The notes: generated by a model from the letters alone, not told the origin. Counted from the stretch's first letter, positions 105 to 48,549 are shown. The stretch is 48,578 nucleotides of DNA from Acidobacteria bacterium AH-259-O06 (GCA_027717865.1 JALLOM010000001.1:1-48578); one strand, 5' to 3'. Numbers and translations are program-made.

Positions 105-181
105 GCTCCTGGCTCCTGGCTCCTGGCTCCTGCCTCCTGCCTCCTGCCTCCTGCCTCCTGCCTCCTGGCTCCTGCCTCCTG
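105..181. repeat. Tandem heptamer array, 11 units (GCTCCTG x4, CCTCCTG x5, GCTCCTG, CCTCCTG)
   Basis: Counted directly, with perfect 7-bp periodicity. It lies 8 nt beyond the fadN stop codon (189-191); on the minus strand that stop is followed 8 nt later by 11 GCAGGAG/CCAGGAG units. Confidence 0.95.
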
Positions 182-188
182 CCCCTTG

Positions 189-2540
189 TCAGTTCCTTAG
201 TGGTTTGCCGGTCTTGAGAGTATGCTGGATCCGCTGCAGTGTCTTTCTCTCTCCACACAGTGTTAGGAAAGCTTCTCGCTCGAGGTCAAGCAGGTACTGT
301 TCAGAAACGTTGGTTCGATGGTTAAGATCGCCGCCCGTGAGGATATAGGCGAGCTTTTCCCCGATCAAAGCGTCATGCTCTGAGATGTATTCAGCTTGTT
401 TCATCAGGTGGATCCCCACCTTTAAGACTGCCAGACCGGAATTTCCCAAGACGGGAATATTCTCATGCGGCTCCGGTTCAATATATCCCGCCTCTACCAA
501 CCTGAGCACCTCCTGCTTGGCGCTGGAAAGAAGGCGGTCAGGATGGATCTCAATGAGGTCATCCGGGCGCAGGAATCGCAGCCGCTTTGCATCTTCGCCG
601 CTTCGGCTGACCTCAGCCCTGCCGATCGTTTCAAAGGCTTTTCTGACTCCAGGGAGTAAATCCACACCGGGAAGTGATTGGGCTTCACCGATATGGCGGA
701 TGAGCATTTCCTTGGTTCCCCCTCCGGCCGGGACCAGTCCGACGCCTACCTCCACCAATCCAATGTAAGTTTCCGCAGACGCCACCACCGCGTCACATGC
801 CAAACAGACCTCGGCTCCTCCTCCCAACGCTCGTTGAAAGGGGGCAGCCACTACCGGCTTGGCCGAATACCGAAAAGAGGCGTTCACATTCTGGAAGGCC
901 CGCACCATTTGATCGATCTCCTCCCAGTTTCCTTCCTGGGCCTCCAATAGCAGGAGCATTAAATTGGCACCTACCGAAAAATCTTTTCCCTGATTGCCGA
1001 TCACAAGACCCAGAAAGTTTTTCTTCACTTCGCGGACAACCCAGCGCGCTAGTCCAACGATGTCAACTCCGATGGCGTTCATCTTAGAGTGAAATTCAAG
1101 GCAGGCTACTCCGTCACCAAGATCCACCAGGCTCGCTCCGGCGTTTGAGCGAATGACTCTGTCTGGTTGCTTTAAAATCGTGAGCTGGATCTTATTTGGA
1201 TCCTGGCTCAACACCTGATATTCCCGGCTGGCCAAATCGAAGAAAAGTTGATGATCGGCTCCCATCGCATAAAAACCATTTGGCGGCTCATTGAACAGCT
1301 CATCCACCCACTCGGGGAGCTCCTTTTCGTCTTGCCGGATTCGTTCCGCAATTTCCTTCGTACCGAGCGCCTGCCACAGTTCAAAGGGCCCAAGCTCCCA
1401 ATTGAAGCCCCATCTCATGGCCCGGTCGATTTGATAATACTCCTCGGTGATCTCTGGGACCCGCTCGGCGGAGTAGACGAAGATGTCGCGAAAAAAAGAC
1501 CAGAGAAAGGCGCCAGCCTTGTCTTGCGACTTCAAAAGATTCTGGATCCGCTTTGCCGTGTCTGTCTCGTTGCGAACCATCTCCACAGAGGGGAGATTCG
1601 GTTTCCTGCGGCTTCGGTACTCGAGAGTCTTGGGGTCCACAACAAGAATCTCCTCCCCCTCTTTCTTGTAAAATCCCTGTCCAGTCTTCCGCCCCTTCCA
1701 GTCGCGCTGGACGAGTTGCATCATAAGAGAAGAAGGGCGAAAGCTCTCTCTCCATGGGTCCTCCGGCACGTTTTCATAAAGATTTTCCGCCACGTCGAGC
1801 ATGATATCGATGCCAACCAGATCAGCTAAGCGAAAAGTTGCGGTCTTGGCAAACCCAATCACCGGACCTGTCAGCGCGTCGACTTCCTCAATCGTCAAGT
1901 CCAATTCCTGCATGAGTTCCATCGCTCGCATCGCTACAAAAGAACCAACCCGATTGGCCACAAAATTAGGCCGATCTTTGGCAATCACGATTCCCTTCCC
2001 TAAGAACCGGTCTGCCACGAAGGCCACCGTCTCCACCACGGAAGGTAATGTGCTGGATCCTGGAATCAACTCCAACAGCTTCATGTATCGTGGAGGGTTG
2101 AAAAAGTGAGTACCCAACCAATGTTTCTGAAAATCTTCGGACCGCCCTTCAGCGATCTTTTCCACCGGCAACCCGCTGGTATTGGTGGAGACCATTGTGC
2201 CGGGTCGTCGGTGGGCCTCCACCCTTTCCCACAGCTGACGCTTCACGTCAAGTTTTTCGACCACACATTCGATGATCCAATCGTAGGAAGAAAGTCTTGG
2301 CAGGTCATCTTCAAAGTTACCCACCTCGATAAAACGCACTTTTTCAGGGGAATAGAGAGGCGCGGGCTTGGTTGAGGAAAGTCGCCCCACGGCGCGCCGT
2401 GCAAGGGCACTGCGATCCGATCCTTCAGAAGGGAGATCTAAGAGCAGCGTCTTAATTGCAACGTTGGCAAAATGGGCGGCAATTTGCGCGCCCATGGTGC
2501 CGGCACCGAGAACGGCCACTCGATTCAATGTGTGGGTCAT
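189..2540 (-). CDS. fadN: Bifunctional 3-hydroxyacyl-CoA dehydrogenase / enoyl-CoA hydratase (dehydrogenase domain N-terminal, FadN/FadB type)
   Basis: 783-aa ORF. N-terminal Rossmann motif VAVLGAGTMGAQIA and an HFFNPP segment typical of 3-hydroxyacyl-CoA dehydrogenases. C-terminal crotonase-like segment GGGAEVCLACD. Confidence 0.85.
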   Translation of the reverse strand: MTHTLNRVAVLGAGTMGAQIAAHFANVAIKTLLLDLPSEGSDRSALARRAVGRLSSTKPAPLYSPEKVRFIEVGNFEDDLPRLSSYDWIIECVVEKLDVKRQLWERVEAHRRPGTMVSTNTSGLPVEKIAEGRSEDFQKHWLGTHFFNPPRYMKLLELIPGSSTLPSVVETVAFVADRFLGKGIVIAKDRPNFVANRVGSFVAMRAMELMQELDLTIEEVDALTGPVIGFAKTATFRLADLVGIDIMLDVAENLYENVPEDPWRESFRPSSLMMQLVQRDWKGRKTGQGFYKKEGEEILVVDPKTLEYRSRRKPNLPSVEMVRNETDTAKRIQNLLKSQDKAGAFLWSFFRDIFVYSAERVPEITEEYYQIDRAMRWGFNWELGPFELWQALGTKEIAERIRQDEKELPEWVDELFNEPPNGFYAMGADHQLFFDLASREYQVLSQDPNKIQLTILKQPDRVIRSNAGASLVDLGDGVACLEFHSKMNAIGVDIVGLARWVVREVKKNFLGLVIGNQGKDFSVGANLMLLLLEAQEGNWEEIDQMVRAFQNVNASFRYSAKPVVAAPFQRALGGGAEVCLACDAVVASAETYIGLVEVGVGLVPAGGGTKEMLIRHIGEAQSLPGVDLLPGVRKAFETIGRAEVSRSGEDAKRLRFLRPDDLIEIHPDRLLSSAKQEVLRLVEAGYIEPEPHENIPVLGNSGLAVLKVGIHLMKQAEYISEHDALIGEKLAYILTGGDLNHRTNVSEQYLLDLEREAFLTLCGERKTLQRIQHTLKTGKPLRN

Positions 2541-2590
2541 GCCTAAAAGGTGCCGGATCTGGAGGAAGGTTGCAAGAAGAAAATTTTTGG

Positions 2591-2663
2591 GTGCTCTTGT
2601 GCTGTGGTGCTGCCGTGCTGGTGCAATTTTGTACTGATGCCCTCACCACAGCACGAAAGCACT
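2591..2663 (-). terminator. GTGCT-repeat hairpin (candidate terminator after korB), CACGAAAGCAC family
   Basis: GTGCTGTGGTG (2599-2609) pairs perfectly with CACCACAGCAC (2644-2654), and the flanking GTGCTCTTGTGC / GCACGAAAGCAC extend the stem imperfectly. On the minus strand it lies 10 nt after the korB stop and is followed by CCAAAAATTTTC. Confidence 0.45.
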
Positions 2664-2672
2664 AAACTCGTG

Positions 2673-3743
2673 TCACATCAACCCCTGCATGGCTTCCTCC
2701 AGGGCCTCTCGCCCAGGTCGAAGCTTCTCTTGAGGAAGAGCGGCCAAGGCCGTGTCAGGCAAATTTAGCAGGTCTAAAAAGTTCTCCGCCACCGGATTCA
2801 CATAGATCAAGCCCGTCAAAAACTCACCTGAATCCCGGGTCTCATTGAGCATCCGCAAAGCGGCATCTCTATCTGTTGGATTGTAATCTCGATCTACCTT
2901 TCGCAGCCGAATGCGGGAGCCGTCGTGCATCTCGACTTCTCTTAATTCTCCTTCCTCATACACCACCGTTTCAATCGGCTCGAAATGCGGAACAAAGTCG
3001 ATCTGGTGAAGGAGTTCCTCGTGCTCTTTAGCCCACCTGTAGCTCTTGGTGGAACCCTGGTGGTTATTAAAGGTAACACAGGGGCTAAGGACATCCAGCA
3101 TGCTCGTTCCACTGTGACTGAGGGCTCCTTGCAGCAGAGGAACTAGTTGTTTTGGATCCCCGGCATAGGAGCGGGCCACGTAGCTGCATCCCATTTCAAT
3201 GGCCAGGGTACAGCAATCGATCGGCGGTAAGTCATTGACCACCCCGGTTTTTAGTTTGGAACCGGGATCTGCAGTAGCCGAAAACTGTCCTTTCGTCAGT
3301 CCGTAAACACCGTTGTTCTCAATGATATAGATCATGGGGACGTTTCTTCTCAGAAGATGGCAGAACTGTCCCAACCCGATGGATACGGTATCCCCGTCCC
3401 CACTGACTCCGATGCAGACCAATTTCCGATTGGCCAGCACGGCTCCAGTCGCAAGGGAGGGCATACGGCCGTGAACCCCATTGAAAGCATGAGAGTTGCT
3501 GAGAAAATAGGCTGGAGTCTTGCTGGAACAGCCTATTCCGCTCATCTTAGCTACCCGATGGGGGTTTACTCCCATCTCATAAAAGGACTTCATGATCTGG
3601 CTCGATATGGCGTCGTGACCGCAACCAGAGCAAAGTGTAGAGGGTTCTCCCCGGTAGTCGATCATCGTGAGGCCAAGTCGGTTGACTCTTTTAGGTTTCG
3701 GTGCGCTTACCGACATGATGACTCCATTTCTCCTTTCTCGCAC
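2673..3743 (-). CDS. korB: 2-oxoacid:ferredoxin oxidoreductase, beta (TPP-binding) subunit
   Basis: 356-aa ORF with a TPP-binding region GVSGDGDTVSIGLGQF...IIENNGVYGLTKGQ. Lies immediately downstream of the alpha subunit. The true start is probably the ATG at 3716 (MSVSAPKPK), giving a 10-nt overlap with korA. Confidence 0.85.
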   Translation of the reverse strand: MRERRNGVIMSVSAPKPKRVNRLGLTMIDYRGEPSTLCSGCGHDAISSQIMKSFYEMGVNPHRVAKMSGIGCSSKTPAYFLSNSHAFNGVHGRMPSLATGAVLANRKLVCIGVSGDGDTVSIGLGQFCHLLRRNVPMIYIIENNGVYGLTKGQFSATADPGSKLKTGVVNDLPPIDCCTLAIEMGCSYVARSYAGDPKQLVPLLQGALSHSGTSMLDVLSPCVTFNNHQGSTKSYRWAKEHEELLHQIDFVPHFEPIETVVYEEGELREVEMHDGSRIRLRKVDRDYNPTDRDAALRMLNETRDSGEFLTGLIYVNPVAENFLDLLNLPDTALAALPQEKLRPGREALEEAMQGLM

Positions 3744-5650: not shown

Positions 5651-5877
5651 GCCAGGAGCCAGGAGCCAGGAGTCAGAAGCCAGGAGCCAGGAGCACAGGA
5701 GCCAGGAGCACACGAGACAGAATTCAGAATGCAGAAGATTCATTAACAGGTCCAAGCCACATCAGAGCTGAGAAGCTCAAAAGCTCAATAGCTCGAAAGC
5801 TCAATAGCATGAAACCTGGAACCTTCAACCTTCAACTTTCAACCATTCTGGCTCCTGACTCCTGGCTCCTGGCTCCT
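5651..5877. repeat. Mosaic repeat locus: (GCCAGGA)n left arm, (AGCTCAAN)4, (AACCTTC)3, (TGGCTCC)4 right arm
   Basis: Left arm 5651-5736 has about 12 units that decay into CAGAA-type units. An 8-bp-period AGCTCA block is at 5774-5805. ACCTTCA units are at 5821-5841. The right arm at 5849-5876 is complementary to the left arm. Confidence 0.9.
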
Positions 5878-5883
5878 TGACCG

Positions 5884-7443
5884 CTAGTTCACCTTCTCGG
5901 AGATCGACTTGGCCTGGGTGAACAAAAGTAGATAGTCACGACCCCCAGCTTTTGAGTCGGTACCACTCATGTTGAAACCACCGAAAGGATGCACTCCCAC
6001 GAGAGCACCCGTGCATTTGCGATTGATGTACAAATTTCCCACGTGGAATTCTCTTTTGGCTTTTTCGATCTTGGATTTGTTTTGAGTGTACACAGATCCG
6101 GTCAACCCATATTCAGTCTGGTTGGCAATCTCTATTGCCTCATCGTAGTCGCGTGCCCTGATGACCGCCAAAACCGGCCCAAAGACCTCCTCCTGAGCGA
6201 TTGACGCTTTGGGATCTACATCTGAGATGACGGTTGGGCGGACGAAGTATCCTTCAGAACTCCCTGCTTTTCCACCCATCAGCAACTGTCCTTCCGTCCG
6301 TCCGATTTCGATATAACGCAGAATAGAGTCTTGTGCCTTCTGATTGACAACGGCACCAAAATTCACCTCAGGACGCTCCACGTCGCCCTCCTGGATCATG
6401 GTGCACGTTTTCTGCTGAAGCTTCTGCAAGAACTCATCACAAACGGAATCCACAACAATGGCGCGCGAGCAAGCCGAGCATTTCTGGCCCTGATAGCCGA
6501 AGGCCGAAACCACGACAGCCGCGGCAGCCTCATCCAGATTTGATTCATCATCGACCACAATGGCATCTTTCCCACCCATCTCGGCGATGACCCTTTTGAT
6601 CCACATCTGACCCGGCTGGTGCTTGGCTGCCAGTTCGTTGATTCGCAACCCTACTTGCTTGGAGCCGGTGAAGGCAATAAAACGGGTTCTGGGATGTTCC
6701 ACCAGAGCGTCGCCAATTTCTTCTCCACTGCCGGTCAAGAAATTCACCACACCGGGTGGAAATCCCACCTCTTCGACGATCTGCATCAACTGCGCTGCGA
6801 TTGTCGGCGAATCACTGGAAGGCTTCACGATCACAGTGTTTCCGCTAACCAGTGCTGCAAAGGTCATTCCCGAGAGAATGGCCAGAGGGAAATTCCAAGG
6901 TGAAATAATGACACCCACTCCTAAGGGAATATATTCAAGGGCGTTGTCCTCCGACTCGAGTTTGACCAGCGGCTGGGGACCTGCCAGCCGAAGCATCTCC
7001 CCAGAATAAAACTCACAGAAATCGATGGTCTCCGCCACGTCGGCATCCGCTTCCACCCAAGACTTTCCAACCTCCACCACCATCCATGCCGCCAGCTCGA
7101 GCCGGCGCTCTTTCATAATCTGAGAGACCCGCATCACGTATTCGACCCGTTTTGGGGCCGGGACCTGGCTCCAATGTTGAAAGGCTTCTCCTGCAGCCGA
7201 GATGGCCCGCTCAACGAATTCGCGAGTTCCCTTGGGGAAGACCCCCACGACCTCTCCTTTGCGCGAGGGATTTAAGGACTGGAATTGGCTCTCACACCGG
7301 ACTGGTTTTCCTCCGATGATGATGTTGTATTCCCTTCCCAGTTGGCTTCGCACCTTGGCGATGGCGTTTGACATTGCCTGGCGATTCTCCAAGTCTGAAA
7401 AGTCAGTCAAAGGCTGGTTTTTGAATTCACCTAGATTCATCAT
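5884..7443 (-). CDS. pruA: L-glutamate gamma-semialdehyde (1-pyrroline-5-carboxylate) dehydrogenase, aldehyde dehydrogenase family
   Basis: 519-aa ORF. ALDH catalytic motifs EMGGKD and GQKCSACSR. Size and N-terminus match RocA/PruA-type P5C dehydrogenases. Confidence 0.8.
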   Translation of the reverse strand: MMNLGEFKNQPLTDFSDLENRQAMSNAIAKVRSQLGREYNIIIGGKPVRCESQFQSLNPSRKGEVVGVFPKGTREFVERAISAAGEAFQHWSQVPAPKRVEYVMRVSQIMKERRLELAAWMVVEVGKSWVEADADVAETIDFCEFYSGEMLRLAGPQPLVKLESEDNALEYIPLGVGVIISPWNFPLAILSGMTFAALVSGNTVIVKPSSDSPTIAAQLMQIVEEVGFPPGVVNFLTGSGEEIGDALVEHPRTRFIAFTGSKQVGLRINELAAKHQPGQMWIKRVIAEMGGKDAIVVDDESNLDEAAAAVVVSAFGYQGQKCSACSRAIVVDSVCDEFLQKLQQKTCTMIQEGDVERPEVNFGAVVNQKAQDSILRYIEIGRTEGQLLMGGKAGSSEGYFVRPTVISDVDPKASIAQEEVFGPVLAVIRARDYDEAIEIANQTEYGLTGSVYTQNKSKIEKAKREFHVGNLYINRKCTGALVGVHPFGGFNMSGTDSKAGGRDYLLLFTQAKSISEKVN

Positions 7444-7493
7444 TCGTTCTCCGTCGTTTCAATCTTGACGAAGCTCTTGAGCTATGAGCTAGG

Positions 7494-7591
7494 GTAGGGG
7501 CGAGCCGGTGGCTCGCCCGAACAGTTCTCCCTAGATGATAAGCTTATCATCTAGGGAGAACTGTTCGGGCGAGCCACCGGCTCCCCCCTAC
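7494..7591. repeat. REPIN-like 98-bp palindrome: two inverted GTAG-headed REP-like units
   Basis: GTAGGGGCGAGCCGGTGGCTCGCCCGAACAGTTCTCCCTAGATGATAAG and its reverse complement are centred on AAGCTT (one mismatch). Each arm holds its own 9-bp hairpin GGGCGAGCC/GGCTCGCCC. Flanked by TGAGCTA units (7471-7493) and CCTGGCT heptamers (7592-7616). Confidence 0.9.
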
Positions 7592-8918
7592 CCTGGCCCC
7601 TGGCTCCTGGCTCCTGTAAGTCGGGAATCCGCCGGATCACGTCCATAAAGGAGGAAACCGAGAAAACCGCATTTCCAATACCGGGCTTTCCATACCCGGG
7701 TGGCGCATCAAGTTCATACTTTTCATGTGTCTCTCTCCAGGCACGGAGAAGACGAACGTGATACTCGAGAGGAGCCCCTTCTGGATTGAGTTTCCCTAGA
7801 ATACTCAGAGGTTCCGGGCACCACGTTGTGAAGCGAGGAGTAATGCCCTGAGACATGAAAAAGTCCAATCCTTCAGAGGTGGAAGCGACGGCCTCATCTA
7901 CGGTTTCAAAACCGCAGGGCCGAGCCATTTCGATTCCGGCCACGAAATTAGGAATAACACAAGAAGGACCAAGGACTTCCGCGGCATCCAGAATGCGGCG
8001 AATCCACTCGTCACGACCGATGCAACGGTTCTTCCCCGCGCAGATAATTTCAAAGAGCCGCCGGTCCCAGACTTCATAGTTTGGATGGTAGATCTGCACA
8101 CCCACATCCCTGAATCGACACACTTCTTCCCTAGGCAAGGCCTGGACCACCACCTTTGCTATCCACCGACCCGGGAATCGCTTCTCAATCGCTTCCGGGT
8201 ACTGAACATAAAAATCAATCTCACGCATTCCGTTGAGTTGGGAGGTAATGCTTCCTCCTGTCACGGTGTAAGCCTGGCTCTCGGAATCAGCATCGTTGAC
8301 GACTTCCAGGGCTTCCAGGATTTCCTCAACCGTCTTGATGCCAGTGTAAGACCGCCCAGTCTTCTTCTGTTGACGATAGTTCTCATTGATATCGCAGAAT
8401 TGGCACTCTTGTTGATGACCGAAGTACTGGCAAATTCTGAAGACGGTCAAATAGAGTAGATATCCCCACTCGATAGTTGGTGCAATATCCATGATCGGTT
8501 TCCCACTGGCCAGAGTTCGTTGATAATATTCCGGAGTTTTCTCAAACTGGATCCCTGAGAGCTCTTCCTTTTCCAATGTGAGGACCAAATCTGCTTGATC
8601 GGAAATATCGACCCGATAAGGAGAACGCGGATTCAATCGGACAGAAACGATGGTGCGACGAAAATTTCTCGGCCCACCGACTAGGCAGATCTCCTCGGGC
8701 GCCCGCAGGTTCTCCTGCCTCTGCATGTGAGCAATGGGGACCAAATCAAAAGAAAAGATAAAGTACGCTTTGGGCTTGAAGCCGGAAGCTACGCGCAGCG
8801 CATCCTCTGAAAAGGAGATCCCCGTTCGAAGTAGATCTTCCTTAAAGATTGCCTCCGGAGGCAAATCCGAATACTTCTCTATCAACGCGTCAACGAGCTG
8901 TAATCTCTGTACCATCAA
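7551..8918 (-). CDS. Hypothetical protein, radical-SAM-like TIM-barrel with a non-canonical Cys triad; the C-terminal ~23 aa are encoded by repeat DNA
   Basis: 455-aa ORF. Cys cluster CQYFGHQQECQFC (CX8CX2C instead of CX3CX2C), followed by TGGS and NYEVWD..LF..ICAGK...NFVAGIE segments reminiscent of BioB/HydE-type radical SAM cores. The stop codon TAG sits inside the 7494-7591 palindrome. Confidence 0.45.
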   Translation of the reverse strand: MMVQRLQLVDALIEKYSDLPPEAIFKEDLLRTGISFSEDALRVASGFKPKAYFIFSFDLVPIAHMQRQENLRAPEEICLVGGPRNFRRTIVSVRLNPRSPYRVDISDQADLVLTLEKEELSGIQFEKTPEYYQRTLASGKPIMDIAPTIEWGYLLYLTVFRICQYFGHQQECQFCDINENYRQQKKTGRSYTGIKTVEEILEALEVVNDADSESQAYTVTGGSITSQLNGMREIDFYVQYPEAIEKRFPGRWIAKVVVQALPREEVCRFRDVGVQIYHPNYEVWDRRLFEIICAGKNRCIGRDEWIRRILDAAEVLGPSCVIPNFVAGIEMARPCGFETVDEAVASTSEGLDFFMSQGITPRFTTWCPEPLSILGKLNPEGAPLEYHVRLLRAWRETHEKYELDAPPGYGKPGIGNAVFSVSSFMDVIRRIPDLQEPGARGQGRGEPVARPNSSP

Positions 8919-8938
8919 CGCTACAGCCTAACACATTG

Positions 8939-9018
8939 GGTCAGGTAGGGGCCGTGTCTTTAAAATTTAAATTTTGAGGTCAAAATTCAAATTTTAAAGA
9001 CACGGCCCCTACCTGACC
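8939..9018. repeat. 80-bp near-perfect palindrome with GGTCAGGTAGGGG termini
   Basis: 39-nt arms GGTCAGGTAGGGGCCGTGTCTTTAAAATTTAAATTTTGA with a 2-nt centre and one mismatch. Lies between the divergent starts of the 7551-8918 ORF and the TPR gene. Confidence 0.92.
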
Positions 9019-9102
9019 TCGGGCCTCAACTTGACTCCTCTACATCCCATCTTATAATACTTCGTCTTCTGGCTGATCCTAATACAATCACGGGAGGACT
9101 TT

Positions 9103-9762
9103 ATGCCGGCCAAAAGAAGCAAGAAGCAAAAGAGCAAACAGACTAAGAAGAAACCAGCTAAGAAGAAACCGAGTAGCAAAAAACAAGTAAGGAAGAGACC
9201 AACCGGGAAAACACGAGCTGGGAAAAAACAAGTTGGGAAAAAACGAGCTCAAAAACGGGGCAGATCTGAGAAGAAAAGATCTGCCGAGGAGGTTTACCGG
9301 CTTTACAAAGAGGCACTGGCCCTTTTACACCAGAAGAAATATAAGAAAGCCCGCAAACAACTCACTCAGGTGGTGAAAAAGTTTTCTCATGAAATCGAGG
9401 TGGTCGCCCGAGCCAAATCCTTTCTCAGAGTCTGCGACAGAAACCTTCAAGCGAAAGAAGAACCTCCACGGACAGCTGAAGAGATTTTCCATCAAGGCGT
9501 CCTTTACCATAATGCTGGGCAATACGAAAAAGCGCTGCATTGTTATTCTCGTGCTTTGAAGCTTTCGAAAAAGAAGAACGACCACATTTACTACGCCTTG
9601 TCGGCAACTGAGCTTTCCACTGGCAATATCGATAATGCGCTCAAATATCTCAAGAAGGCCATTGAAATCAAAGAGGAGAATCGGTTCTTTGCTCACAACG
9701 ACCCAGATTTCGAGCTCCTCGCTACAAACCAGAAATTCCGGGAACTGATCCATCCAGAGTAA
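9103..9762 (+). CDS. TPR-repeat protein with a histone-H1-like Lys-rich N-terminal domain
   Basis: 219-aa ORF with an SD (GGGAGGA) upstream. The first ~60 aa are about 50% K/R (KKQKSKQTKKKPAKKKPSSKK...). The C-terminal part has TPR-like helices (YHNAGQYEKALHCYSRALKL; GNIDNALKYLKKAIEI). Confidence 0.7.
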   Translation: MPAKRSKKQKSKQTKKKPAKKKPSSKKQVRKRPTGKTRAGKKQVGKKRAQKRGRSEKKRSAEEVYRLYKEALALLHQKKYKKARKQLTQVVKKFSHEIEVVARAKSFLRVCDRNLQAKEEPPRTAEEIFHQGVLYHNAGQYEKALHCYSRALKLSKKKNDHIYYALSATELSTGNIDNALKYLKKAIEIKEENRFFAHNDPDFELLATNQKFRELIHPE

Positions 9763-9861: not shown

Positions 9862-11313
9862 ATGGTGGCTAACAAGAATCAGTCGCTGCATCGAAACAAA
9901 CGATATGCCCTCATTCTAGCTGCGGGTCAAAGTATCCGGTTCAAGTCTCTCAAGCCCAAAGTACTGCACCCCCTTTGCGGCAAATCTCTAATCTGCCACG
10001 TCTTGGACAAGCTCAAAGGTTTGAACATCGAGCGAACCTTCGTGGTTATCGGTCCTGATGGTGATGAGGTGAAAAGTGCACTTGGGGGATACCCTGTGAA
10101 TTTTGTTTCCCAAAGCGAGCAATTGGGGACAGGTCACGCGGTAATGGCGGCCGCTCCTCAACTGAGAGATCTCAGGGGAAGCCTTCTCGTGCTCTATGCG
10201 GACACGCCGCTCATTCGAACACAGACGCTGCGGCGACTTCTGAAAACTCGAGAAAAGCATAAGGCCGATCAGGTCTTGTTAACCACTGATTATGAGAATC
10301 CCTCTGGGTACGGCAGAATCATTCGCAATGAAAAGGGCGAGGCGATGGACATCGTTGAAGAAAAGGATGCCAGCGCTGAACAAAAAGCCATTCGCGAAGT
10401 CAACGCCGGCCTTAACTGCTTTAGGATTCCCTCGCTGCTGGAGGCTCTATCACAATTGTCCCCAGCAAACGCTGCCCAAGAGTACTACCTAACAGACATA
10501 CTTCGCATCCTGCGAAACGGCGGAAAGAAAGTCGTAACCATCTCGACTGACCTCCCCAATGAAGCACGGGGAGTTAACAACCGAGAGGAACTCTCACTGG
10601 TTGAGATCAATTTGAGGGCTCAGATTGCTCGAAGATGGATGCTTGAAGGAGTAACCATTCTGAATCCTTCCTCCGTTTACATCGACGAATCTGTCGAACT
10701 CTCTCCAGATGCGATCATTTATCCCGGTGTTCTTCTGGAAGGAAAAACCAAAGTCGGCGCCGGCTGCGTGATCCACAGCTTCTGCCACCTGAAAGACACC
10801 GTTCTCGACCAAGAAGTCATGGTTGACCAGTGCTCTGTGATACGCAACAGCAGCATTGGAAAAAACACCCGGGTAGGCCCTTTTGCTCATTTGCGAGATA
10901 ACACCGTTATCGGGCCTGAAGCCCGCATCGGAAGCTTCGTGGAGGTCAAGAAGTCGCGAATTGGAAAAAGGACCACAGCTGCCCACCTGAGCTACCTGGG
11001 AGACGCTGAAATTGGAAGTCAAGTCAATGTGGGCGCCGGCACGATCACCTGCAACTATGACGGCATCCGGAAGCATAAAACCGTAATCGAGGACCAGGTT
11101 TTTATTGGCAGCGACAGCCAGTTGGTCGCTCCGGTCACGCTCCACCAGGGCTCCTATGTGGCGGCCGGTTCCTCAATTACGGAAGATGTACCTGAGTACG
11201 CCCTAGGAATCGCCCGTGCCAGACAGATCAACAAGGAAGGATGGACGAGACGAAGGGCTGGAGAACAAAAGAAAAAAGAAAAAAGAAAAAAGAAAGAACA
11301 GCAAAAGAGCTGA
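9862..11313 (+). CDS. glmU: Bifunctional UDP-N-acetylglucosamine pyrophosphorylase / glucosamine-1-phosphate N-acetyltransferase
   Basis: 483-aa ORF. N-terminal nucleotidyltransferase motif LILAAGQSIRFKS, GTGHAV, and C-terminal left-handed beta-helix hexapeptide repeats. Extra Lys-rich tail QKKKEKRKKKEQQKS. Confidence 0.9.
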   Translation: MVANKNQSLHRNKRYALILAAGQSIRFKSLKPKVLHPLCGKSLICHVLDKLKGLNIERTFVVIGPDGDEVKSALGGYPVNFVSQSEQLGTGHAVMAAAPQLRDLRGSLLVLYADTPLIRTQTLRRLLKTREKHKADQVLLTTDYENPSGYGRIIRNEKGEAMDIVEEKDASAEQKAIREVNAGLNCFRIPSLLEALSQLSPANAAQEYYLTDILRILRNGGKKVVTISTDLPNEARGVNNREELSLVEINLRAQIARRWMLEGVTILNPSSVYIDESVELSPDAIIYPGVLLEGKTKVGAGCVIHSFCHLKDTVLDQEVMVDQCSVIRNSSIGKNTRVGPFAHLRDNTVIGPEARIGSFVEVKKSRIGKRTTAAHLSYLGDAEIGSQVNVGAGTITCNYDGIRKHKTVIEDQVFIGSDSQLVAPVTLHQGSYVAAGSSITEDVPEYALGIARARQINKEGWTRRRAGEQKKKEKRKKKEQQKS

Positions 11314-11564
11314 CCACAGACCAGGAGACAGAAGACAGGAGTCAGGAGACAGAAGTCAGGAGTCAGGAGTCAGAATCCAGAATTCAGAATAACTAACTTG
11401 AATTTCATGAGCTGTCCCAACCGTTCCCAGCGTCGAATGGGATGATGAGGAAAAAACTTAACTTAACTTCATGTTTTGACCAAACAATCTTCTCCTGTGC
11501 GTTCATATTCTGATCCTGTCTCCTGACTCCTGACTCCTGTCTTCTGTCTCCTGGTCTGTGGTCA
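11311..11564. repeat. Inverted heptamer arms (38 bp perfect, about 60-80 bp imperfect) enclosing a ~115-nt core; the termini include both convergent stop codons
   Basis: Left arm TGACCACAGACCAGGAGACAGAAGACAGGAGTCAGGAG... at 11311-11390. The reverse complement of 11507-11564 begins with the identical 38 nt. TGA of glmU (11311-11313) and TGA of carB (11564-11562) are the first 3 nt of each arm. Confidence 0.92.
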
Positions 11565-14500: not shown

Positions 14501-14789
14501 TCAGTCCAGTCTGGCCACCCACAGTGGGTAGCAAAGCATCCGGACGCTCGCGCTTGATAATTTCCCCCACATACTCGCTGGTGAGAGGCTCAATGTAGGT
14601 CCGTGTGGCAAACTCCGGATCTGTCATGATGGTGGCCGGATTGGAGTTGACCAGCACTACCTGAAAACCGTCGCTCAGGAGAGCTTTGCAGGCTTGAGTT
14701 CCTGAGTAATCAAACTCGCAGGCTTGGCCGATGATAATCGGGCCCGATCCCACGATGAGGATTTTGCTGATATCGGTTCTTTTAGGCAT
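11562..14789 (-). CDS. carB: Carbamoyl-phosphate synthase large subunit
   Basis: 1075-aa ORF with a duplicated ATP-grasp architecture. N-terminus [30 protein letters not shown] is characteristic of CarB. Confidence 0.97.
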
Positions 14790-14796
14790 CGATTTT

Positions 14797-14918
14797 TAAG
14801 CTATTAAGCTTTTGAGCTAGAGTAGGGGCGAGCCGGTGGCTCGCCCGAACAGTTCTCGCTAGATGATTAGTTCGGGCGAGCCACCGGCTCGCCCCTATCC
14901 TGGCTCCTGACTCCTGAC
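14797..14918. repeat. Second, truncated copy of the GTAG-REPIN module with the same flanks
   Basis: TAAGCTA/TTGAGCTA units are followed by GTAGGGGCGAGCCGGTGGCTCGCCCGAACAGTTCTCGCTAGATGATTAG (from 14822). Next come a shortened inverted arm TTCGGGCGAGCCACCGGCTCGCCCCTAT (to 14898) and then TCCTGGC/TCCTGAC heptamers. Confidence 0.9.
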
Positions 14919-14923
14919 CCCCA

Positions 14924-16026: not shown

Positions 16027-16214
16027 TAGAATCTAGAATCCAGAATCCAGAATCCAGAAGTCAGAATTCAGAAGCCAGAATGCTGACCACCTGACCGCCT
16101 GACCTAATGTTGTCTCTTGCTCGTTGGTCAGCCGGTCAGCCTTTCGCTTGTCCGCAGACTTATGAGTTTTCCATCTCGCCTTCTGAATTCTGGATTCTGG
16201 ATTCTGGATTCTGT
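16027..16214. repeat. Nested inverted arrays: outer (CCAGAAT)8 / (ATTCTGG)4-5, inner (CTGACC)3 / (GGTCAG)2
   Basis: Left CTAGAAT/CCAGAAT/TCAGAAT units at 16027-16082, then GCTGACCACCTGACCGCCTGACC. Complementary TTGGTCAGCCGGTCAGCC is at about 16125-16142. The right arm CTTCTGAATTCTGGATTCTGGATTCTGGATTCTG is at about 16181-16214. Confidence 0.9.
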
Positions 16215-18379: not shown

Positions 18380-18387
18380 AGGTAGGG

Positions 18388-18452
18388 GGTCAGGTATGGG
18401 ATTTTGGCATTTCGCCACTTTTGGGCGAAATGCCAAAATCCCATACCTGACC
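18388..18452. repeat. 65-bp perfect hairpin palindrome with GGTCAGGTATGGG termini
   Basis: 29-nt arms GGTCAGGTATGGGATTTTGGCATTTCGCC with a 7-nt loop. It shares its terminal 13 nt (one substitution) with the 8939-9018 element but has a different core. Lies between the pyrH stop and the frr start. Confidence 0.92.
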
Positions 18453-40152: not shown

Positions 40153-41472
40153 CTATTCTTTTGTTCTTTTGTTCTTTTGTTCTGCGGGCGCAGCGAGCTC
40201 CTCATCCAGCTTCTTGACTCGCATGCTTTGAATCTTTTTCCCGTCCGAGCTGAGGATCTCAATCAGCAGCCCGTCCAAAACCACAGTTTCGCCGGGTGAA
40301 GGAACTTTTCCAAGGTGAGCCACAACAAGACCTGAGACGGTCGTGACATCCGGTTCTCCGAGGTCGATATCTAAGGTCTCCTCCAGCTCCTCAACTTCCG
40401 CTCTGCCGCGGACAAGGTAGTTACTGTCCCCCTGATAGACCAAATCCACTTTCTCCAACTCGTCCTCATCACGGATTTCTCCGACAATTTCCTCGATCAC
40501 GTCCTCGATCGTCACTAATCCGGATACAGACGCATACTCGTTGATGACGATGGCCAGATGCTCCGCGTTGAGCTGCATTTCCCTTAACAATTCCGACACT
40601 TTCTTAGTCTCCGGTACAAACCAGGCTTTGTTGATCAGCGCAGTTATAGGATCGTCTCCATTCCCGTCACCGAGATAGCTCAGAAGGTTGCGAACGTACA
40701 CCACGCCGACAACTTGATCGATCCTCTCTCTGTAGACCGGGATCCGCGAGAACTTGCTGGAGACGATGAGTTCTTTCAATTCAGAAATGGTCGCATTTTC
40801 TTCAATTGCAACAATTTCCGTGCGTGGCGTCATGATTTCTCGGGCCAATGTGTCCCCGAATTCCAGAGCCGATTGAATCAACTCGCTTTCATCCTCTTCA
40901 AAAATCCCTTCCTCCTCTCCCACACCGAGGTAAGCTTGGATTTCCTCTTCACTTGCTTCCTCCTCCGGAGCGATTTGCAATTTGTTTTTTTCTTTGGAAG
41001 CCTGAGAGGCTCGCAAAAGAACCACCACAGGTGAGCTCACCCAGTACAGGACTCGATAGAAACTCTTGAAAAGTGGAAGCAGGCGGAGCAGAACTCGTTC
41101 CGGCTCCGACTGTGTGATCATTCTGGGGAACAGCTGCCGAAAAAGGGAAATGATCGCCACCATCACCACAAGGGCCCAGACAAGGGCCCAGAAAGGAGCG
41201 TAGGCCGCCCCTGAACCCAAGAACATAAGGGTGGTGAGGACCGCCAGTACCATCAGTAGCAGTTGAGATCCAAACTGAAGGGGAAGCAAAAACTGGATGC
41301 GATCCCGTGCGATGTCTTCCAAAAGACGGACTTTGGGGCTTCTCTCTCTCTCGGCCAGGACCTTCAAGGACAATCGAGAAAGCCGAGAGATCGAACTCTC
41401 GATCACCGAGATAAAAAAGAGCATAAGAACCAGGAGCGCGATCGTGAAAAATCCGAAATTAAACCAGTTCAA
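40153..41472 (-). CDS. CNNM/HlyC-CorC family protein (DUF21 membrane domain, CBS pair, CorC_HlyC)
   Basis: 439 aa with an N-terminal 4-TM DUF21, tandem CBS (IMTPRTEIVAI...), and a C-terminal transporter-associated domain. Sits at the conserved position after ybeY. Confidence 0.88.
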   Translation of the reverse strand: MNWFNFGFFTIALLVLMLFFISVIESSISRLSRLSLKVLAERERSPKVRLLEDIARDRIQFLLPLQFGSQLLLMVLAVLTTLMFLGSGAAYAPFWALVWALVVMVAIISLFRQLFPRMITQSEPERVLLRLLPLFKSFYRVLYWVSSPVVVLLRASQASKEKNKLQIAPEEEASEEEIQAYLGVGEEEGIFEEDESELIQSALEFGDTLAREIMTPRTEIVAIEENATISELKELIVSSKFSRIPVYRERIDQVVGVVYVRNLLSYLGDGNGDDPITALINKAWFVPETKKVSELLREMQLNAEHLAIVINEYASVSGLVTIEDVIEEIVGEIRDEDELEKVDLVYQGDSNYLVRGRAEVEELEETLDIDLGEPDVTTVSGLVVAHLGKVPSPGETVVLDGLLIEILSSDGKKIQSMRVKKLDEELAAPAEQKNKRTKE

Positions 41473-45919: not shown

Positions 45920-46663
45920 CTACATATACATTCCGCCGTTTATATTTAGCACATGCCCTGTTATATATCCAGCCTCTTTTGAGGCCAGGAAAAGCACACC
46001 GTAGGCCACATCCTCAACAGTACCAAACCTTGCCAGGGGAATGCTGTTTTGCAGTTCATCTCTTGCTTTGTGTCCGAGCTCAGCCGTCATGTCGGTTTCG
46101 ATGAAGCCCGGGGCAATCGCGTTGACCGTGATGTTTCGGGAAGCAACCTCACGCGCCAGTGCCTTTGTGAACCCAATGATTCCCGCCTTGCTGGCCACAT
46201 AATTCACCTGGCCGGGATTCCCCATTTGGGCCACCACCGAAGTGATGTTAATCACCCGTCCATAGCGCTGGCGAACCATCTCTGCGATGATCTCGCGAGT
46301 GACACAATAGACTCCATCCAGATTTGTTGTCAGGACTTGGCGCCAATCCTTCTCTTGCATCCGAAGCAGAAGACTGTCACGGGCAATACCCGCATTGTTC
46401 ACCAGTATGTCAACCTTCTCAAAATGCTCACCTCTGCGAGAGAGTGCGCTTTTGACCTGATCAAGCCGGCCCACATCCATCTGCACCGCCAGGGCTTCTC
46501 CACCTCTTGTGCGAATCTCCGCCGCCAAAGCTTCAATATCTGCTTGAGATCGGCTTGCCAATACCACACGGGCCCCGTGCGAGGCCAACTCTTCGGCCAC
46601 CTTTCGGCCGATCCCTCGTGAAGCCCCGGTCACCAGCGCCACTTGATTAGAAAAGTCATACAT
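45920..46663 (-). CDS. fabG: 3-oxoacyl-ACP reductase
   Basis: [23 protein letters not shown] and YVASKAG (Y-x3-K). The ATG at 46663 overlaps the fabD stop by 8 nt. The 46 upstream codons in the track are rejected. Confidence 0.93.
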
Positions 46664-47570
46664 AGGTTTCCAATTGTTCTCGATTCTCAATATTGGTGAT
46701 CTGAACAGAGGGAGCGACCCTCCGAATGAGGCCACCCAGCACTTTACCAGGCCCCACTTCGACAAAAGTCGAGACACCGGCTCGGAGCAACCGGCGCACA
46801 CAGTCGCCCCAGAGCACGGCCGATGAAACTTGTCTCACCAAGCCCTCGCGTGCTTCCTCCCCCCCGGTAACAATCTGAGCTTCGACATTATTAATGAGGG
46901 GAATCTTAAGGTCATAAAAAGGAATCTCGCCAATCACTTCTGACAGACGGGCCTCGGCCGGCTTCATCAGGTCACAGTGAAAGGGAGCACTGACGGAAAG
47001 GGGGAGGACTCTTCGTGCTCCCCTTTCTTTCGCGAGATTGACGGCTCGTTCCACTGCCCGACTGTGGCCGGCGATGACGATTTGATCTGGAGAGTTGACG
47101 TTTGCAGGGGAAACCACCTCACCCTGGGCTGCCTCCTGGCAGATTTCCTCTACTTCAGGCAGCTTCAAACCCAGAACTGCGGCCATCGCTCCCTCTCCGA
47201 GCGGAACTGCTTCCTGCATAAAACGGCCTCTCTGACGAACCAGTCGGACGGCATCCTGGAAACCGAGCCCGCCAGCAGCCACCAACGCGGAATACTCGCC
47301 AAGGCTGTGTCCAGCCACGAAATCGGCCAATCTCCCTTGGTTCTCCAGGATTCTAAAGAGGGCAATAGAAGTCGTCAGTATCGCAGGCTGAGTGTTCTCC
47401 GTCAGCAGAAGCTCCTCCTCCGAACCTTCAAAGCAGAGCCGGCTCAGCGGAAAACCGAGAGCCTTATCGGCCTCCTCGAACACCTCACGAGCCTCTGCAA
47501 ACTCCTCTGCCACATCGCGACCCATTCCACAATACTGAGCGCCCTGTCCCGGGAAGACGAATGCCCGCAT
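46656..47570 (-). CDS. fabD: Malonyl-CoA:ACP transacylase
   Basis: MRAFVFPGQGAQ N-terminus and GHSLGEYSA nucleophile elbow. The track GTG start at 47609 would encode a perfect 8-bp hairpin (47589-47607), so the ATG at 47570 is preferred, though no strong SD precedes it. Confidence 0.9.
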   Translation of the reverse strand: MRAFVFPGQGAQYCGMGRDVAEEFAEAREVFEEADKALGFPLSRLCFEGSEEELLLTENTQPAILTTSIALFRILENQGRLADFVAGHSLGEYSALVAAGGLGFQDAVRLVRQRGRFMQEAVPLGEGAMAAVLGLKLPEVEEICQEAAQGEVVSPANVNSPDQIVIAGHSRAVERAVNLAKERGARRVLPLSVSAPFHCDLMKPAEARLSEVIGEIPFYDLKIPLINNVEAQIVTGGEEAREGLVRQVSSAVLWGDCVRRLLRAGVSTFVEVGPGKVLGGLIRRVAPSVQITNIENREQLETYV

Positions 47571-47637
47571 GCTGTTGAGCTGTGTAGCGTCCGCTCTGAG
47601 AGCGGACACTACAGCCCCCTGACTCCTGGCTCCTAAC

Positions 47638-47823
47638 TCACGACATTTCCTCTACTTCAATCACTTGCCTACCCTTGTAATAACCGCAGTTTGGGCAGAC
47701 TCGATGTGGGAGAACCGGGGACCCGCAGTTGCTGCAAGTCGAGAGATTGGGAGCAGTCAAGAAATCGTGAGCTCGGCGCTTTCCTCTGCGTGATTTCGAA
47801 TGTCTTCTCTTTGGATTAGGCAC
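47638..47823 (-). CDS. rpmF: 50S ribosomal protein L32
   Basis: 61 aa. [20 protein letters not shown]-terminus and a CxxC...CxxC zinc ribbon. Confidence 0.95.
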
Positions 47824-47836
47824 CTTAATTCCTGTT

Positions 47837-47869
47837 GAGGGGTCTAGGGGTCAGACCCCTAAACCCCTC
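47837..47869. repeat. 33-nt imperfect palindrome overlapping the yceD stop codon
   Basis: GAGGGGTCTAGGGGTCAGACCCCTAAACCCCTC: outer 7-bp and inner 6-8-bp stems with a TAGGGG/CCCCTA core. Lies 13 nt upstream of the rpmF start on the minus strand. Confidence 0.85.
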
Positions 47870-48410
47870 ATTTCTCCTTGCTGAGCCTTTTCTTCACATC
47901 TAAGAGAACCGCTAATCGCGGGTCAACACTCCGACGTTGACAATTGCAATTACCCTCGTTCAAATCAGCACCACACTGATCGCATAAGCCCTTACAAGCT
48001 TCCTGGCAGACGGGTTTCATCGGCATTTCCAAAACGATTTGTTCGGAGATCACTGCACTCACATCCAGTCGGTCTTTCCGATAAAAGCCGATCACTAGGT
48101 CCGTGTAAGTCAAGCCAAATTCCTCCCCCTCAGCTTCCAGCGCAGGATCAGGCCAATACTCTACTTCAAATCCTTTTCGAATCCTGTGCGGGAAGGGTTT
48201 TAAGCAGCGACAGCACACTACCTGGAGATCAGCCTGCACTTCCCCAACAACCAGCACTTGACCCCCTGAAAGTGAAACTCTCAATTCGGAGCGAACAGGT
48301 CGCTGCAAGGCCATGATATGGCTACGCAGCTTGAGCTCCTGGTCACCAAAATCTGTTTCGATAAAAAGCGGCTCATTCCGCTCTCTGAGTTCCTTGATAT
48401 CGACAAGCAC
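47868..48410 (-). CDS. yceD: YceD/DUF177 family protein (23S rRNA accumulation protein)
   Basis: 180 aa with a Cys-rich C-terminal part (CKGLCDQCGADLNEGNCNC). Conserved position directly upstream of rpmF. Confidence 0.85.
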   Translation of the reverse strand: MLVDIKELRERNEPLFIETDFGDQELKLRSHIMALQRPVRSELRVSLSGGQVLVVGEVQADLQVVCCRCLKPFPHRIRKGFEVEYWPDPALEAEGEEFGLTYTDLVIGFYRKDRLDVSAVISEQIVLEMPMKPVCQEACKGLCDQCGADLNEGNCNCQRRSVDPRLAVLLDVKKRLSKEK

Positions 48411-48483
48411 TGGTAACCACCTTCTCTGTGGAGTACTTTTCTCAAACTAAACCGTTTATCGGGCCCCAATGGGGACTGCCCTG

Positions 48484-48549
48484 GTGCCTTCGTGCTGTCG
48501 TGCCTTCGTGGCCTCGTGCGTGCTGTCAGTTACGTCACGAAAGCACGAA
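48484..48549. repeat. CTTCGTG-family heptamer array with a partial complementary arm
   Basis: GTGCCTTCGTGCTGTCGTGCCTTCGTGGCCTCGTGCGTGCTGTC followed by CACGAAAGCACGAA. The same units occur at 16875-16971 and 2644-2663. Confidence 0.88.

Follow-up and report, generated by a model that had tools for sequence, protein, structure and literature searches.

Tandem heptamers came to notice decades ago in cyanobacteria and were later recognized as a genome-wide excess in many bacterial phyla; to our knowledge there is no accepted account of their origin or role. Here we analyze the tandem 7- and 8-nt repeat arrays, and the long palindromes found with them, in the intergenic spacers of a 48,578-nt stretch of DNA from Acidobacteria bacterium AH-259-O06 (GCA_027717865.1, JALLOM010000001.1:1-48578; hereafter the window). 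A preliminary description of the window, made from its sequence, had drawn attention to these structures. Overall, they are a strongly expanded Acidobacteriota instance of the known, unexplained heptamer class, intertwined with REPIN-like elements.

As relayed in later papers (PMC4679880, PMC4692102), the survey that Mrazek and co-workers made in 2007 ranked heptanucleotide repeats first in abundance among the long simple sequence repeats (SSRs) of most prokaryotic genomes, with over-representation in many phyla, and proposed that ∼7 nt matches the length of DNA in the grip of the polymerase, a match that would promote slippage. The arrays of the window share with the SSRs so described the dominance of tandem 7-nt units, enrichment above chance, a copy number that is polymorphic between close relatives, confinement to non-coding DNA (the unit not being a multiple of 3) and a scattered phylogenetic distribution. 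Going by the same secondary accounts, they differ from the survey's description in a density 5–8 times that of control loci and in an accompanying 8-nt class and, as far as those accounts extend, in mirrored arms around multicopy cores and in the turnover of whole modules between near-identical strains.

Xanthomonas genomes each carry 70–75 convergent pairs of GGGAATC heptamers, with a strong bias to positions within 50 bp of, or overlapping, a stop codon (Rehm et al. 2015, PMC4692102). Repeat lengths differ between Xcc and Xac while the type, singleton or pair, is preserved, and most of the repeats are transcribed (PMC4692102). The inverted-arm design that hugs stop codons, which the preliminary description had not counted among the reported features of the cyanobacterial repeats, has therefore been reported before. 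Like the GGGAATC repeats of Xanthomonas and the GGGGAYT repeats of Nostoc, those of the window are mostly intergenic, form convergent pairs, lie close to stop codons and vary in length. The Xanthomonas and Nostoc repeats, however, constitute a single G-rich, G-quadruplex-capable family in which four units are preferred (PMC4692102), whereas the window has several unrelated families without G3 tracts, up to 11 units in an array and cores that appear to move between loci. Indeed, GGG is absent from CCAGGAG, CAGAATY, CARCTGA and the other units, and the whole 48.6 kb contains 3 G-quadruplex motifs. For Nostoc, a preprint reports modest, unexplained effects of heptamer repeats on recF and recO expression.

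The cyanobacterial short tandemly repeated repetitive (STRR) sequences, known to us as the three tandem heptanucleotides of Calothrix PCC 7601 cited in PMC4692102, are, to the extent given there, likewise tandem, highly repeated and intergenic, and differ in unit sequence and host phylum. Direct TAACTGA repeats occur in marine Beggiatoaceae, cyanobacteria and Bacteroidetes and end just upstream of start codons, with 1 inverted set among 170; cold-shock proteins were named as possible binders, CspB binding as one protein per heptamer with weak sequence specificity (MacGregor 2015, PMC4679880). The CAACTGA/CAGCTGA units of the window and of relatives are one base off TAACTGA, lie between a stop and the next start and contain TGA in all three frames, and in two relatives (L086 and L203) arrays of this family end a few nucleotides before the ATG, as the TAACTGA arrays do. 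Unlike in that system, inverted pairing is common here, and this is the one unit family of the window that resembles TAACTGA.

The four arm–core–arm modules described below (A–D) are similar in location, multicopy nature, strain variability and predicted RNA hairpin to repetitive extragenic palindromic (REP) sequences and REPINs, to BIME and ERIC elements and to Correia-type MITEs (miniature transposable elements bounded by inverted repeats). Terminal inverted repeats around a short non-coding core are MITE-like, with neither a target-site duplication nor an insertion sequence (IS) found. Unlike in REPs and MITEs, the arms of modules A–D are tandem SSRs of variable length and not a fixed terminal inverted repeat. 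The slippage idea thus has a precedent in print, and so do inverted pairs, the bias towards stop codons and the fact that such repeats are transcribed; the heptamer excess and the inverted stop-hugging pairs are known, and the design itself is not new. New with respect to these descriptions are the host phylum, the many coexisting unit families including 8-mers, the nested arms and, in near-identical strains, the wholesale exchange of modules and cores between loci.

Arrays and arm–core–arm modules in the intergenic spacers

Tandem Repeats Finder (TRF) returned 61 rows for the 48.6-kb window, among them 18 period-7 and 10 period-8 arrays, both far more numerous than arrays with periods of 5, 6, 9 or 10. 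The corresponding means in 30 dinucleotide-preserving shuffles were 0.93 (maximum 3) and 0.80 (maximum 2). Period-7 density in the window was 37 per 100 kb, against 4.9–7.3 per 100 kb in 2.1 Mb of control DNA, comprising 1.5 Mb around carB in 80 other species (7.3) and 0.64 Mb of random metagenome contigs (4.9). Essentially all arrays listed in the preliminary description were recovered by TRF, three of them as weak calls (2590–2620, 78% matches; 47618–47639, 3 units; 48477–48519, 75–77%). Higher-order periods of 14, 16, 21 and 24 nt were also seen among the arrays.

According to our gene map (open reading frames (ORFs) combined with NCBIfam and Pfam hits), 8.9% of the window is intergenic, and this small fraction holds 15 of the 18 period-7 and 8 of the 10 period-8 arrays, so that the proposed enrichment in spacers is borne out within the window. 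The three 'coding' period-7 arrays lie in the first or last codons of their ORF. Arrays occur in about 11–12 of the 23 spacers of at least 50 bp, and the 28–47-kb stretch has nine spacers without any; 'most' spacers in the earlier claim is therefore nearer to half.

At least six unit families coexist: NCAGRAK (with the variants CCAGGAG, TCAGGAG, ACAGAAG and YCAGAAT), CARCTGA, AACCTTC/TTGAAGG and the 8-mers AAGCTCAA, CACGAARG and CTGACCNN. Tandem dimers of CCCCAGT, TTGGTCA or CAACAGT, which we take to be the STRR units, were absent from the window. Rfam and tRNA scans of the window gave no match.

An inverted-repeat search revealed modules in four spacers, each with two complementary arrays (arms) around a core. 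Modules start 0–6 nt downstream of stop codons; likewise, arrays begin 0–6 nt past the stops of the fadN-like, pruA-like, glmU, carB, carA and lepB genes; at pepP, a distance of ∼15 nt separates the stop from the first complete CAGAAT unit.

Module D (11310–11565) lies between the convergent genes glmU and carB, with arms at 11310–11390 and 11507–11565 (TRF 11322–11390 and 11510–11553) and a core at 11391–11506. Its inverted pair I2 (11310–11361/11514–11565; 52 nt, 94% complementary) begins at CTGACCACAGACCAGGAG on both sides and encloses both TGA stops (11311–11313 and 11562–11564); the predicted RNA fold has −137.1 kcal/mol (z −12.3). Module C (5651–5877, minus strand) separates the stop of the pruA-like gene (5884) from the promoter/start of korA (5566). 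Outer CCAGGAG units grade into inner CAGAAT units in one of its arms (5651–5736; TRF 5651–5709 and 5718–5736), the other arm is at 5848–5877, and its core (5737–5847) contains a AAGCTCAA 8-mer array (5773–5808) and an AACCTTC 7-mer array (5820–5844). The inverted pairs of module C (I18 and I20–I22) measure 27–30 nt with 89–97% complementarity, and its predicted fold has −134.5 kcal/mol (z −4.9).

In both of these modules the units are CAGGAG-like on the outside and CAGAAT-like towards the core, and the unit variants of one arm recur in mirrored order in the other (I2 and I18). This mirrored order suggests that the arms were copied from each other, by hairpin-templated template switching or inverted duplication, or that they are kept paired by selection. 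The drifting unit families and complementary arms of the preliminary description are real features.

Module B (16028–16213, minus strand) takes up the entire lepB–carA spacer, with 6 nt left to the lepB stop on one side and 6 nt to the carA ATG on the other. Its CAGAATY arms (16028–16081 and 16181–16213 by TRF) flank a core (16082–16180) with nested 8-mer arms, CTGACCNN (16083–16104) and GGTCAGCC (16126–16141); inverted pairs I12/I13 span 32–34 nt (94–97% complementary), and the predicted fold has −95 kcal/mol (z −8.7). Module A (27483–27698, plus strand) lies between the aminopeptidase P stop (27471–27473) and a promoter-like site of accB (27697–27725), and consists of a TCAGAAT/TCAGAAG arm (27483–27559), core A (27560–27654) and an ATTCTGG arm (27655–27698; TRF 27486–27559 and 27655–27698). 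Inverted pairs I6/I8 are 44 nt long and 84–86% complementary, with a predicted fold of −91.3 kcal/mol (z −5.9).

Taken together, the folds of modules A–D range from −91 to −137 kcal/mol (z −4.9 to −12.3 against shuffles) with predicted stems of 30–50 bp, in line with the long stems that had been proposed. Six of the seven co-directional modules of the lineage folded better in the sense than in the antisense orientation, by 5–24 kcal/mol and with more G·U pairs. An apparent rule that the purine-rich arm always follows the stop (6/6) was dropped, because a sequence followed by its reverse complement reads identically on both strands; the arm polarity of paired modules is therefore automatic, and the three single arrays that are left are not significant.

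Turnover between near-identical strains and recent expansion

Two independent assemblies from other samples were compared with the window: L081 (ENA metagenome scaffold ERZ23498356), 98–99.6% identical in genes, and L082 (NCBI GCA_046759565.1), 96–97% identical. In both, the same spacers contain arrays of the same families, and the junctions are unique, which rules out an artefact in the assembly of the window. Array-free spacers align normally between the strains (91–98%). Array-bearing ones vary in unit number, a variation between orthologous spacers for which the preliminary description had suggested looking: upstream of lepB, the 8-mer palindrome of the window counts 5+5 units, against ∼4+1 in L082 and ∼1+1 in L081, and copy-number polymorphism was present at four loci in the comparison with L081 and L082.

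Beyond unit number, whole spacer contents differed. The carA–carB spacer has three unrelated fillings in the three strains, namely heptamers, a REP dimer and 8-mers in the window, inverted TTGAGCTW/AGCTCAAW 8-mer arms around a core in L082 and TTGAAGG-type heptamer arms in L081. Similarly, the pruA–korA region of the window and L081 is conserved to the last sense codon and then again from the korA promoter region; in between, pruA ends in TAG followed by module C in the window, versus TGA followed by a CAGAAT-armed module in L081. The core of this L081 module is 81% identical to core B of the window (187 bp) while the flanking genes are 99% identical, which points to a diverged paralogous copy and a dispersed family. 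The lepB–carA spacer of L082 has kept its CAGAATY arms, and the core between them is an inverted, 88%-identical copy of core A of the window (191 bp with arms). Cores that had seemed unique in the preliminary description thus have copies in other spacers of sister strains, which brings the copies found to two for core A and two for core B. A metagenome scan with a 16-mer of core A gave 112 matches, all by chance and with no extended similarity, and a protein-database search with a 49-aa ORF spanning arm and core A gave no match.

The L081 scaffold contains four 100-N gaps (2130–2229, 3577–3676, 6855–6954 and 10630–10729) at or adjoining the lepB–carA spacer, the carA–carB/carB-start junction, and the carB–glmU and radical SAM–pruA spacers. 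Their position at array-bearing spacers indicates that such repeats break short-read assemblies. Near the second gap, part of the carB start seems to be present in duplicate, suggestive of mis-scaffolding at this place.

Relatives at 77–81% CarA identity have the same gene order and compact junctions, with no arrays or small ones. In L086 both the lepB–carA and the carA–carB spacer are 22–23 bp long; in L203 they have 48 and 34 bp, respectively, and carB and glmU overlap. No period-7/8 array was found in the intergenic spacers of L083, where the single weak TRF match (1263–1286) is inside a secretin gene. Since the spacers of these relatives are compact and array-poor, the modules are insertions or expansions; judging from this comparison, the expansion is recent and lineage-specific, on an older background. 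That background is visible in L086 and L203 (80–81%), where CAACTGA/CAGCTGA heptamers, the family of the window array at 22141–22215, fill the carA–carB and lepB–carA spacers; between carA and carB they start within the carA stop and run to the carB ribosome-binding site. In the convergent carB–glmU spacer of L085 (a 77% relative with a 4.7-Mb contig), arms of the 8-mer AACGTCTG lie close against either stop and reproduce the architecture of module D with unrelated units. Between lepB and carA, the junction that holds module B in the window, L084/L085 has an IS (8364–9749; DDE_Tnp_1 transposase, 461 aa).

Inverted pairs of heptamer arrays around short cores also occurred in several groups among the 80 carB loci across bacteria. 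The Verrucomicrobiota metagenome-assembled genome (MAG) L072 has three such pairs within 13 kb (6469–6588, 15569–15669 and 18989–19058), and paired arrays were present in Acidobacteriota (L010 and L040) and in MAGs of Desulfuromonadales or other 'delta' groups (L041 and L044). An array of a window unit family, GAAGTCA/GAATCCA, was found in the Nitrospirota MAG L036 (Thermodesulfovibrionales; 9110–9202). The commonest tetramers in the heptamer arrays of other loci were CTGA (13 of 53 arrays) and GTCA (12 of 53), units with CTGA or TGAC being over-represented. Analogous structures exist in many unrelated genomes, closed chromosomes included. We also considered the carA–carB spacer as a special hotspot and rejected the idea: about 5 of the 109 control-locus arrays lie there, roughly the share of one spacer in twenty.

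Judged by its genes, the host is a member of the Acidobacteriota and not a cyanobacterium, as the gene content had suggested to the preliminary description. The closest relatives of CarB and CarA are from Acidobacteriota MAGs, and aminopeptidase P is 99% identical to one annotated as 'Acidobacteria bacterium AH-259-A15' (P0121, from single amplified genome AH-259-A15), whose contig ends within the aminopeptidase P gene, short of the module A locus. All genes of the window are ordinary housekeeping genes: fadN-like, korAB, pruA-like, radical SAM, glmU, carAB, lepB, pdaD, frr, pyrH, tsf, rpsB, rpsI, rplM, pilMNOQ, pepP, accBC and others. Ribosomal protein S2 (19907–21169, minus strand; 420 aa) has its S2 domain at residues 9–224 and a highly charged, K/E/A-rich C-terminal extension of ∼190 aa. 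Relatives likewise have long S2 proteins (364–443 aa), which marks the extension as a feature of the lineage rather than an artefact.

REP dimers, single arrays and promoter-like sites

GTAG REPs are defined by an unpaired GTAG tail, a 5–13-bp stem and a 2–20-nt loop, with head-to-head dimers predominant; the phyla listed as hosts in the 2013 GTAG/CGTC survey do not include Acidobacteria (Di Nocera et al. 2013, PMC3733652). By their sequence, the palindromes at 7479–7606 and 14814–14906 are GTAG-tagged, REPIN-like REP dimers. Their shared 25-nt unit, GTAG GGGCGAGCC GGT GGCTCGCCC, forms a stem-loop with a 9-bp stem and a 3-nt loop, and is located at 7498–7522 and, inverted, at 7565–7589, as well as at 14821–14845 and 14875–14899. 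Both dimers are head-to-head with the GTAG ends outermost, and both lie downstream of genes. The long palindromes that the preliminary description had included in the filling of the spacers are thus present, but these two are separate from the heptamer phenomenon.

The first dimer is part of a composite (7479–7616, minus strand) in which the 128-nt palindrome (inverted pair I1; 64-nt arms, 92% complementary) is joined by CTGGCTC heptamers (7591–7616) and GAGCTA 8-mer remnants. The second composite, in the carA–carB spacer (14796–14918, minus strand), combines 8-mers (14796–14819), the dimer (I10; 37-nt arms, 92% complementary) and TCCTGAC heptamers (14898–14918), which begin just past the carA stop (14924–14926). 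When the first is aligned with the 14785–14925 copy, the mean column identity is 85% and the REP unit is identical. Each dimer is bordered by CTGGCTC heptamers at one end and by AAGCT-type 8-mers at the opposite end, so that REPs and arrays are physically associated. The radical-SAM ORF on the minus strand meets no stop before the repeat (7551–7616) and reads via the heptamers into the REP dimer, with the tail ...QEPGARGQGRGEPVARPNSSP* ending at the palindrome centre.

Two more palindromes form a second family (GGTCAGGTAKGGG...) that starts with GGTCAGGTA(G/T)GGG. One of them, at 8939–9018 in the divergent radical-SAM/TPR spacer, starts with GGTCAGGTAGGGGCC and has 39-nt arms with 97% complementarity (I5); the other (GGGGTCAGGTATGGGATTTTGGCATTTCGCC), at 18386–18454 between pyrH and frr, has perfect 31-nt arms (100% complementary; I14). 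A related sequence, GGTCAGGTGTGGGATTTT, is present in the lepB–carA spacer of L204, an 81% relative (about 1040–1075), and the motif GGTCAGGT is also the inner 8-mer arm of core B.

The remaining arrays are single or weakly paired. One, at 106–183 on the minus strand, comprises 11 CTCCTGS units (TRF 11.1 copies, 95% matches), which read GCAGGAG/CCAGGAG on the mRNA strand of the fadN-like gene and begin 5 nt past its stop (189–191). Ten CAACTGA/CAGCTGA units on the plus strand at 22141–22215 (TRF 22141–22208) are in the divergent rplM/pilM region, and a short CTCCTGR array of ∼3 units (47611–47639, minus strand; TRF score 30) is directly upstream of the start of the ORF at 46656–47609. Upstream of lepB, an 8-mer palindrome (16869–16971; TRF 16869–16906 and 16925–16971; I11, I17 and I24) has 4.8 units of CTTTCGTG/CTGTCGTG opposing 5 units of CACGAAAG/CACGAAGG and is nested in a further 25-nt inverted repeat (16847–16871/16969–16993). 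Two 8-mer quasi-palindromes are weaker: 3.9 units of GGTGCTGT followed by CACAGCACGAAAGCAC in the fadN–korB spacer (2590–2663; TRF score 34, 78% matches), and a degenerate one of 4.5 units of GTGCCTTC followed by CACGAAAGCACGAA at 48477–48550 (TRF 75–77% matches).

Two further arrays reach into gene ends. AGAAAAA heptamers (11262–11295, plus strand; TRF 4.7 copies, 96% matches) make up the last codons of glmU and give GlmU a K/E-rich C-terminal tail (...EQKKKEKRKKKEQQKS*); at 483 aa, the protein is ∼15 aa longer than in relatives (467–468 aa). A perfect array of 3.5 TTCTTTTG 8-mers (40156–40183, minus strand; TRF 100% matches) occupies the last codons of a CNNM/CorC gene, where 3.5 units of CAAAAGAA are translated as ...AEQKNKRTKE*.

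Sigma-70-like −35/−10 sites directly follow repeat elements in four spacers, at 5644–5615 (minus strand), 9031–9058, 22224–22253 and 27697–27725 (all plus strand). The site at 9031–9058 matches the consensus at 11 of 12 positions, and that at 22224 begins with TTGACA. The location of these sites, which are consensus matches, suggests that the elements occupy the slot between an upstream stop and a downstream promoter. Terminator-like hits in the 1–20 kb region were not enriched (23 versus 23.6 expected), and arrays did not coincide with canonical U-tract terminators, the overlapping hits being short sub-stems and not array arms. With loops of 70–150 nt, the array-armed hairpins also lack the short loop and U-tract of an intrinsic (Rho-independent) terminator.

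Slippage, mobility and the alternatives

We lean, with somewhat more confidence than doubt, towards an explanation in two layers: arrays that arise by slippage and, superimposed on them, mobile or recombining palindromic modules that act like REPs, recently expanded in one Acidobacteriota lineage. Both kinds would be selfish or near-neutral intergenic DNA. The first layer would be a length-dependent mutational process, replication slippage in a 7/8-nt register, that grows and erodes hypermutable arrays. These would be tolerated only where a repeat that shifts the frame does no damage: the permitted stretch would open with the stop codon, often a part of the first unit, and close at the next promoter, ribosome-binding site or start, with occasional extension into the last few codons; as duplication of a stop-containing segment would be neutral, arrays could begin inside the stop codon. 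Slippage of this kind would explain the restriction to spacers, the tails at gene ends, the 14-, 16-, 21- and 24-nt periods and the polymorphism in unit number. Furthermore, that at least six unrelated unit families all have 7–8 nt argues for a length-dependent process and not for one sequence-specific site.

The second layer would consist of the SSR-armed cassettes and the GTAG-REP dimers, which are multicopy and appear to be replaced wholesale between strains, either by transposition or by recombination that uses the repetitive arms as portable homology. Once transcribed, a module would place a 30–50-bp stem behind the stop, which could protect the upstream mRNA, attenuate read-through or be cut by RNase III. 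By analogy, module RNA most likely behaves like the 3′-end or intercistronic stem-loop of a REP, BIME or ERIC element, any change in expression being a side effect and not a design. The sense-folding bias and the adjacent promoter-like −35 boxes (5644, 9031, 22224 and 27697) are consistent with such a REP-like RNA role but do not prove it.

Several points weigh against this two-layer explanation. Slippage by itself does not account for the preference for 7–8 nt, and the role at the RNA level is an analogy. The sense/antisense folding bias was reversed in three modules from other phyla, and the bias could also stem from transcription-associated C-to-T mutation. As to mobility, the gene map and profile hits of the window include no transposase, no RAYT (an IS200/IS605-type Y1 transposase), no reverse transcriptase and no other candidate enzyme; there was no target-site duplication at the junctions of modules A, B and D or of the L081 and L082 copies; and with no further copies of cores A or B, recombination is not separable from transposition. 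Both comparison assemblies are metagenome-derived, and a mis-join via shared arms could have misplaced a core. The risk is genuine for core A in L082, because 88% identity would also fit an orthologous neutral spacer. A mis-join does not, however, explain the different stop codon and junction of L081 or the 81% divergence of its core B.

One could go further and regard the SSR-armed hairpin cassettes as a distinct, unnamed class of mobile or recombining intergenic elements, present in many phyla. Each would be a core between complementary arrays of 7–8-nt units that provide the stop codon of the host gene; its two arms would lengthen in register through hairpin-templated copying, and it would jump or be exchanged between spacers with the arrays as portable homology. 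We regard this as a tentative idea of low probability.

Selection for regulation, which we think unlikely, would turn the arm–core–arm hairpins into intercistronic or 3′-UTR devices (U-tract-less terminators, RNase III sites or translation insulators with stops in all frames) in which gain and loss of units tunes the stem length and through it the expression of the neighbouring housekeeping genes, as in contingency loci. Their exact placement between a stop codon and the next promoter-like site or start, and the high stability of the stems, would be expected of such devices; so would the G·U pairs that favour the sense strand in six of the seven lineage modules despite the inversion of core A in L082, and the convergent spacer of L085, where the same architecture is built from unrelated units. 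TGA-containing units are also common (CARCTGA, CTGACC and TCCTGAC), CTGA and GTCA lead the tetramers elsewhere, and the modest recF and recO effects in the Nostoc preprint point the same way. Against this, close relatives manage without such elements at the same junctions (22–48 bp), and the unrelated spacer contents of near-identical strains speak of turnover, not conservation. Half of the spacers and the entire 28–47-kb stretch are array-free, no U-tract terminators coincide with arrays, and module B, which comes so close to the essential carA that neither a promoter nor a ribosome-binding site would fit between them, looks tolerated rather than designed.

Purely local slippage without mobility is, in our view, somewhat less likely still. 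Arrays and arm pairs would then have grown in place from a short hairpin or stop region, and the cores shared between loci would be chimeras. Short-read assemblies do struggle at these loci, as the N gaps of L081 attest, arms of different loci share units and so invite mis-joins, and the small arrays of L086 and L203 begin within a stop codon, which fits duplication in place. Yet core B of L081, at 81% against flanks of 99%, is a second, diverged copy wherever it is located, the pruA junction and stop codon differ between strains, and the window itself has two composites made of heptamers, a REP dimer and 8-mers.

Protein binding, in which arrays would be kept because their 7–8-nt register sets the phase for an abundant nucleic-acid-binding protein that binds cooperatively (for example a cold-shock-domain protein to RNA or single-stranded DNA, or a nucleoid protein to DNA), strikes us as quite improbable. 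It would account for the strict period across unrelated units, has a precedent in the one CspB per heptamer (MacGregor 2015, PMC4679880) and fits the similar units in distant phyla (GAAGTCA/GAATCCA in L036; CAACTGA versus TAACTGA of Beggiatoaceae). However, unit families without relation to one another number at least six in one genome, pairing of the arms would bury the binding sites in a duplex, the arrays are not conserved between strains and no candidate protein was identified. Finally, an assembly or chimera artefact, which the tendency of such repeats to break short-read assemblies (L081) might suggest and for which absence from independent assemblies had been named as a sign, is hardly credible given that ERZ23498356 and GCA_046759565.1 carry the same families at the same spacers with unique junctions and that analogous structures exist in many unrelated genomes, closed chromosomes among them.

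The lineage is a favourable case for the study of bacterial heptamer repeats: its arrays are dense, its coexisting unit families argue against a single sequence-specific binder, and three assemblies document turnover, including changes in unit number, drift of arms, replacement of modules together with stop codons and the same core at different loci. Slippage versus mobility, action at the DNA versus the RNA level and neutral versus regulatory character are experimentally approachable here. On the practical side, such spacers break short-read assemblies and create spurious ORFs and C-terminal extensions, as for GlmU, CNNM and the radical-SAM protein, and the arrays would serve as very fast markers for strain typing. 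If the cassettes do form a class of their own, near-identical strains would differ wholly in their intergenic landscapes, and this would explain the bacterial heptamer excess.

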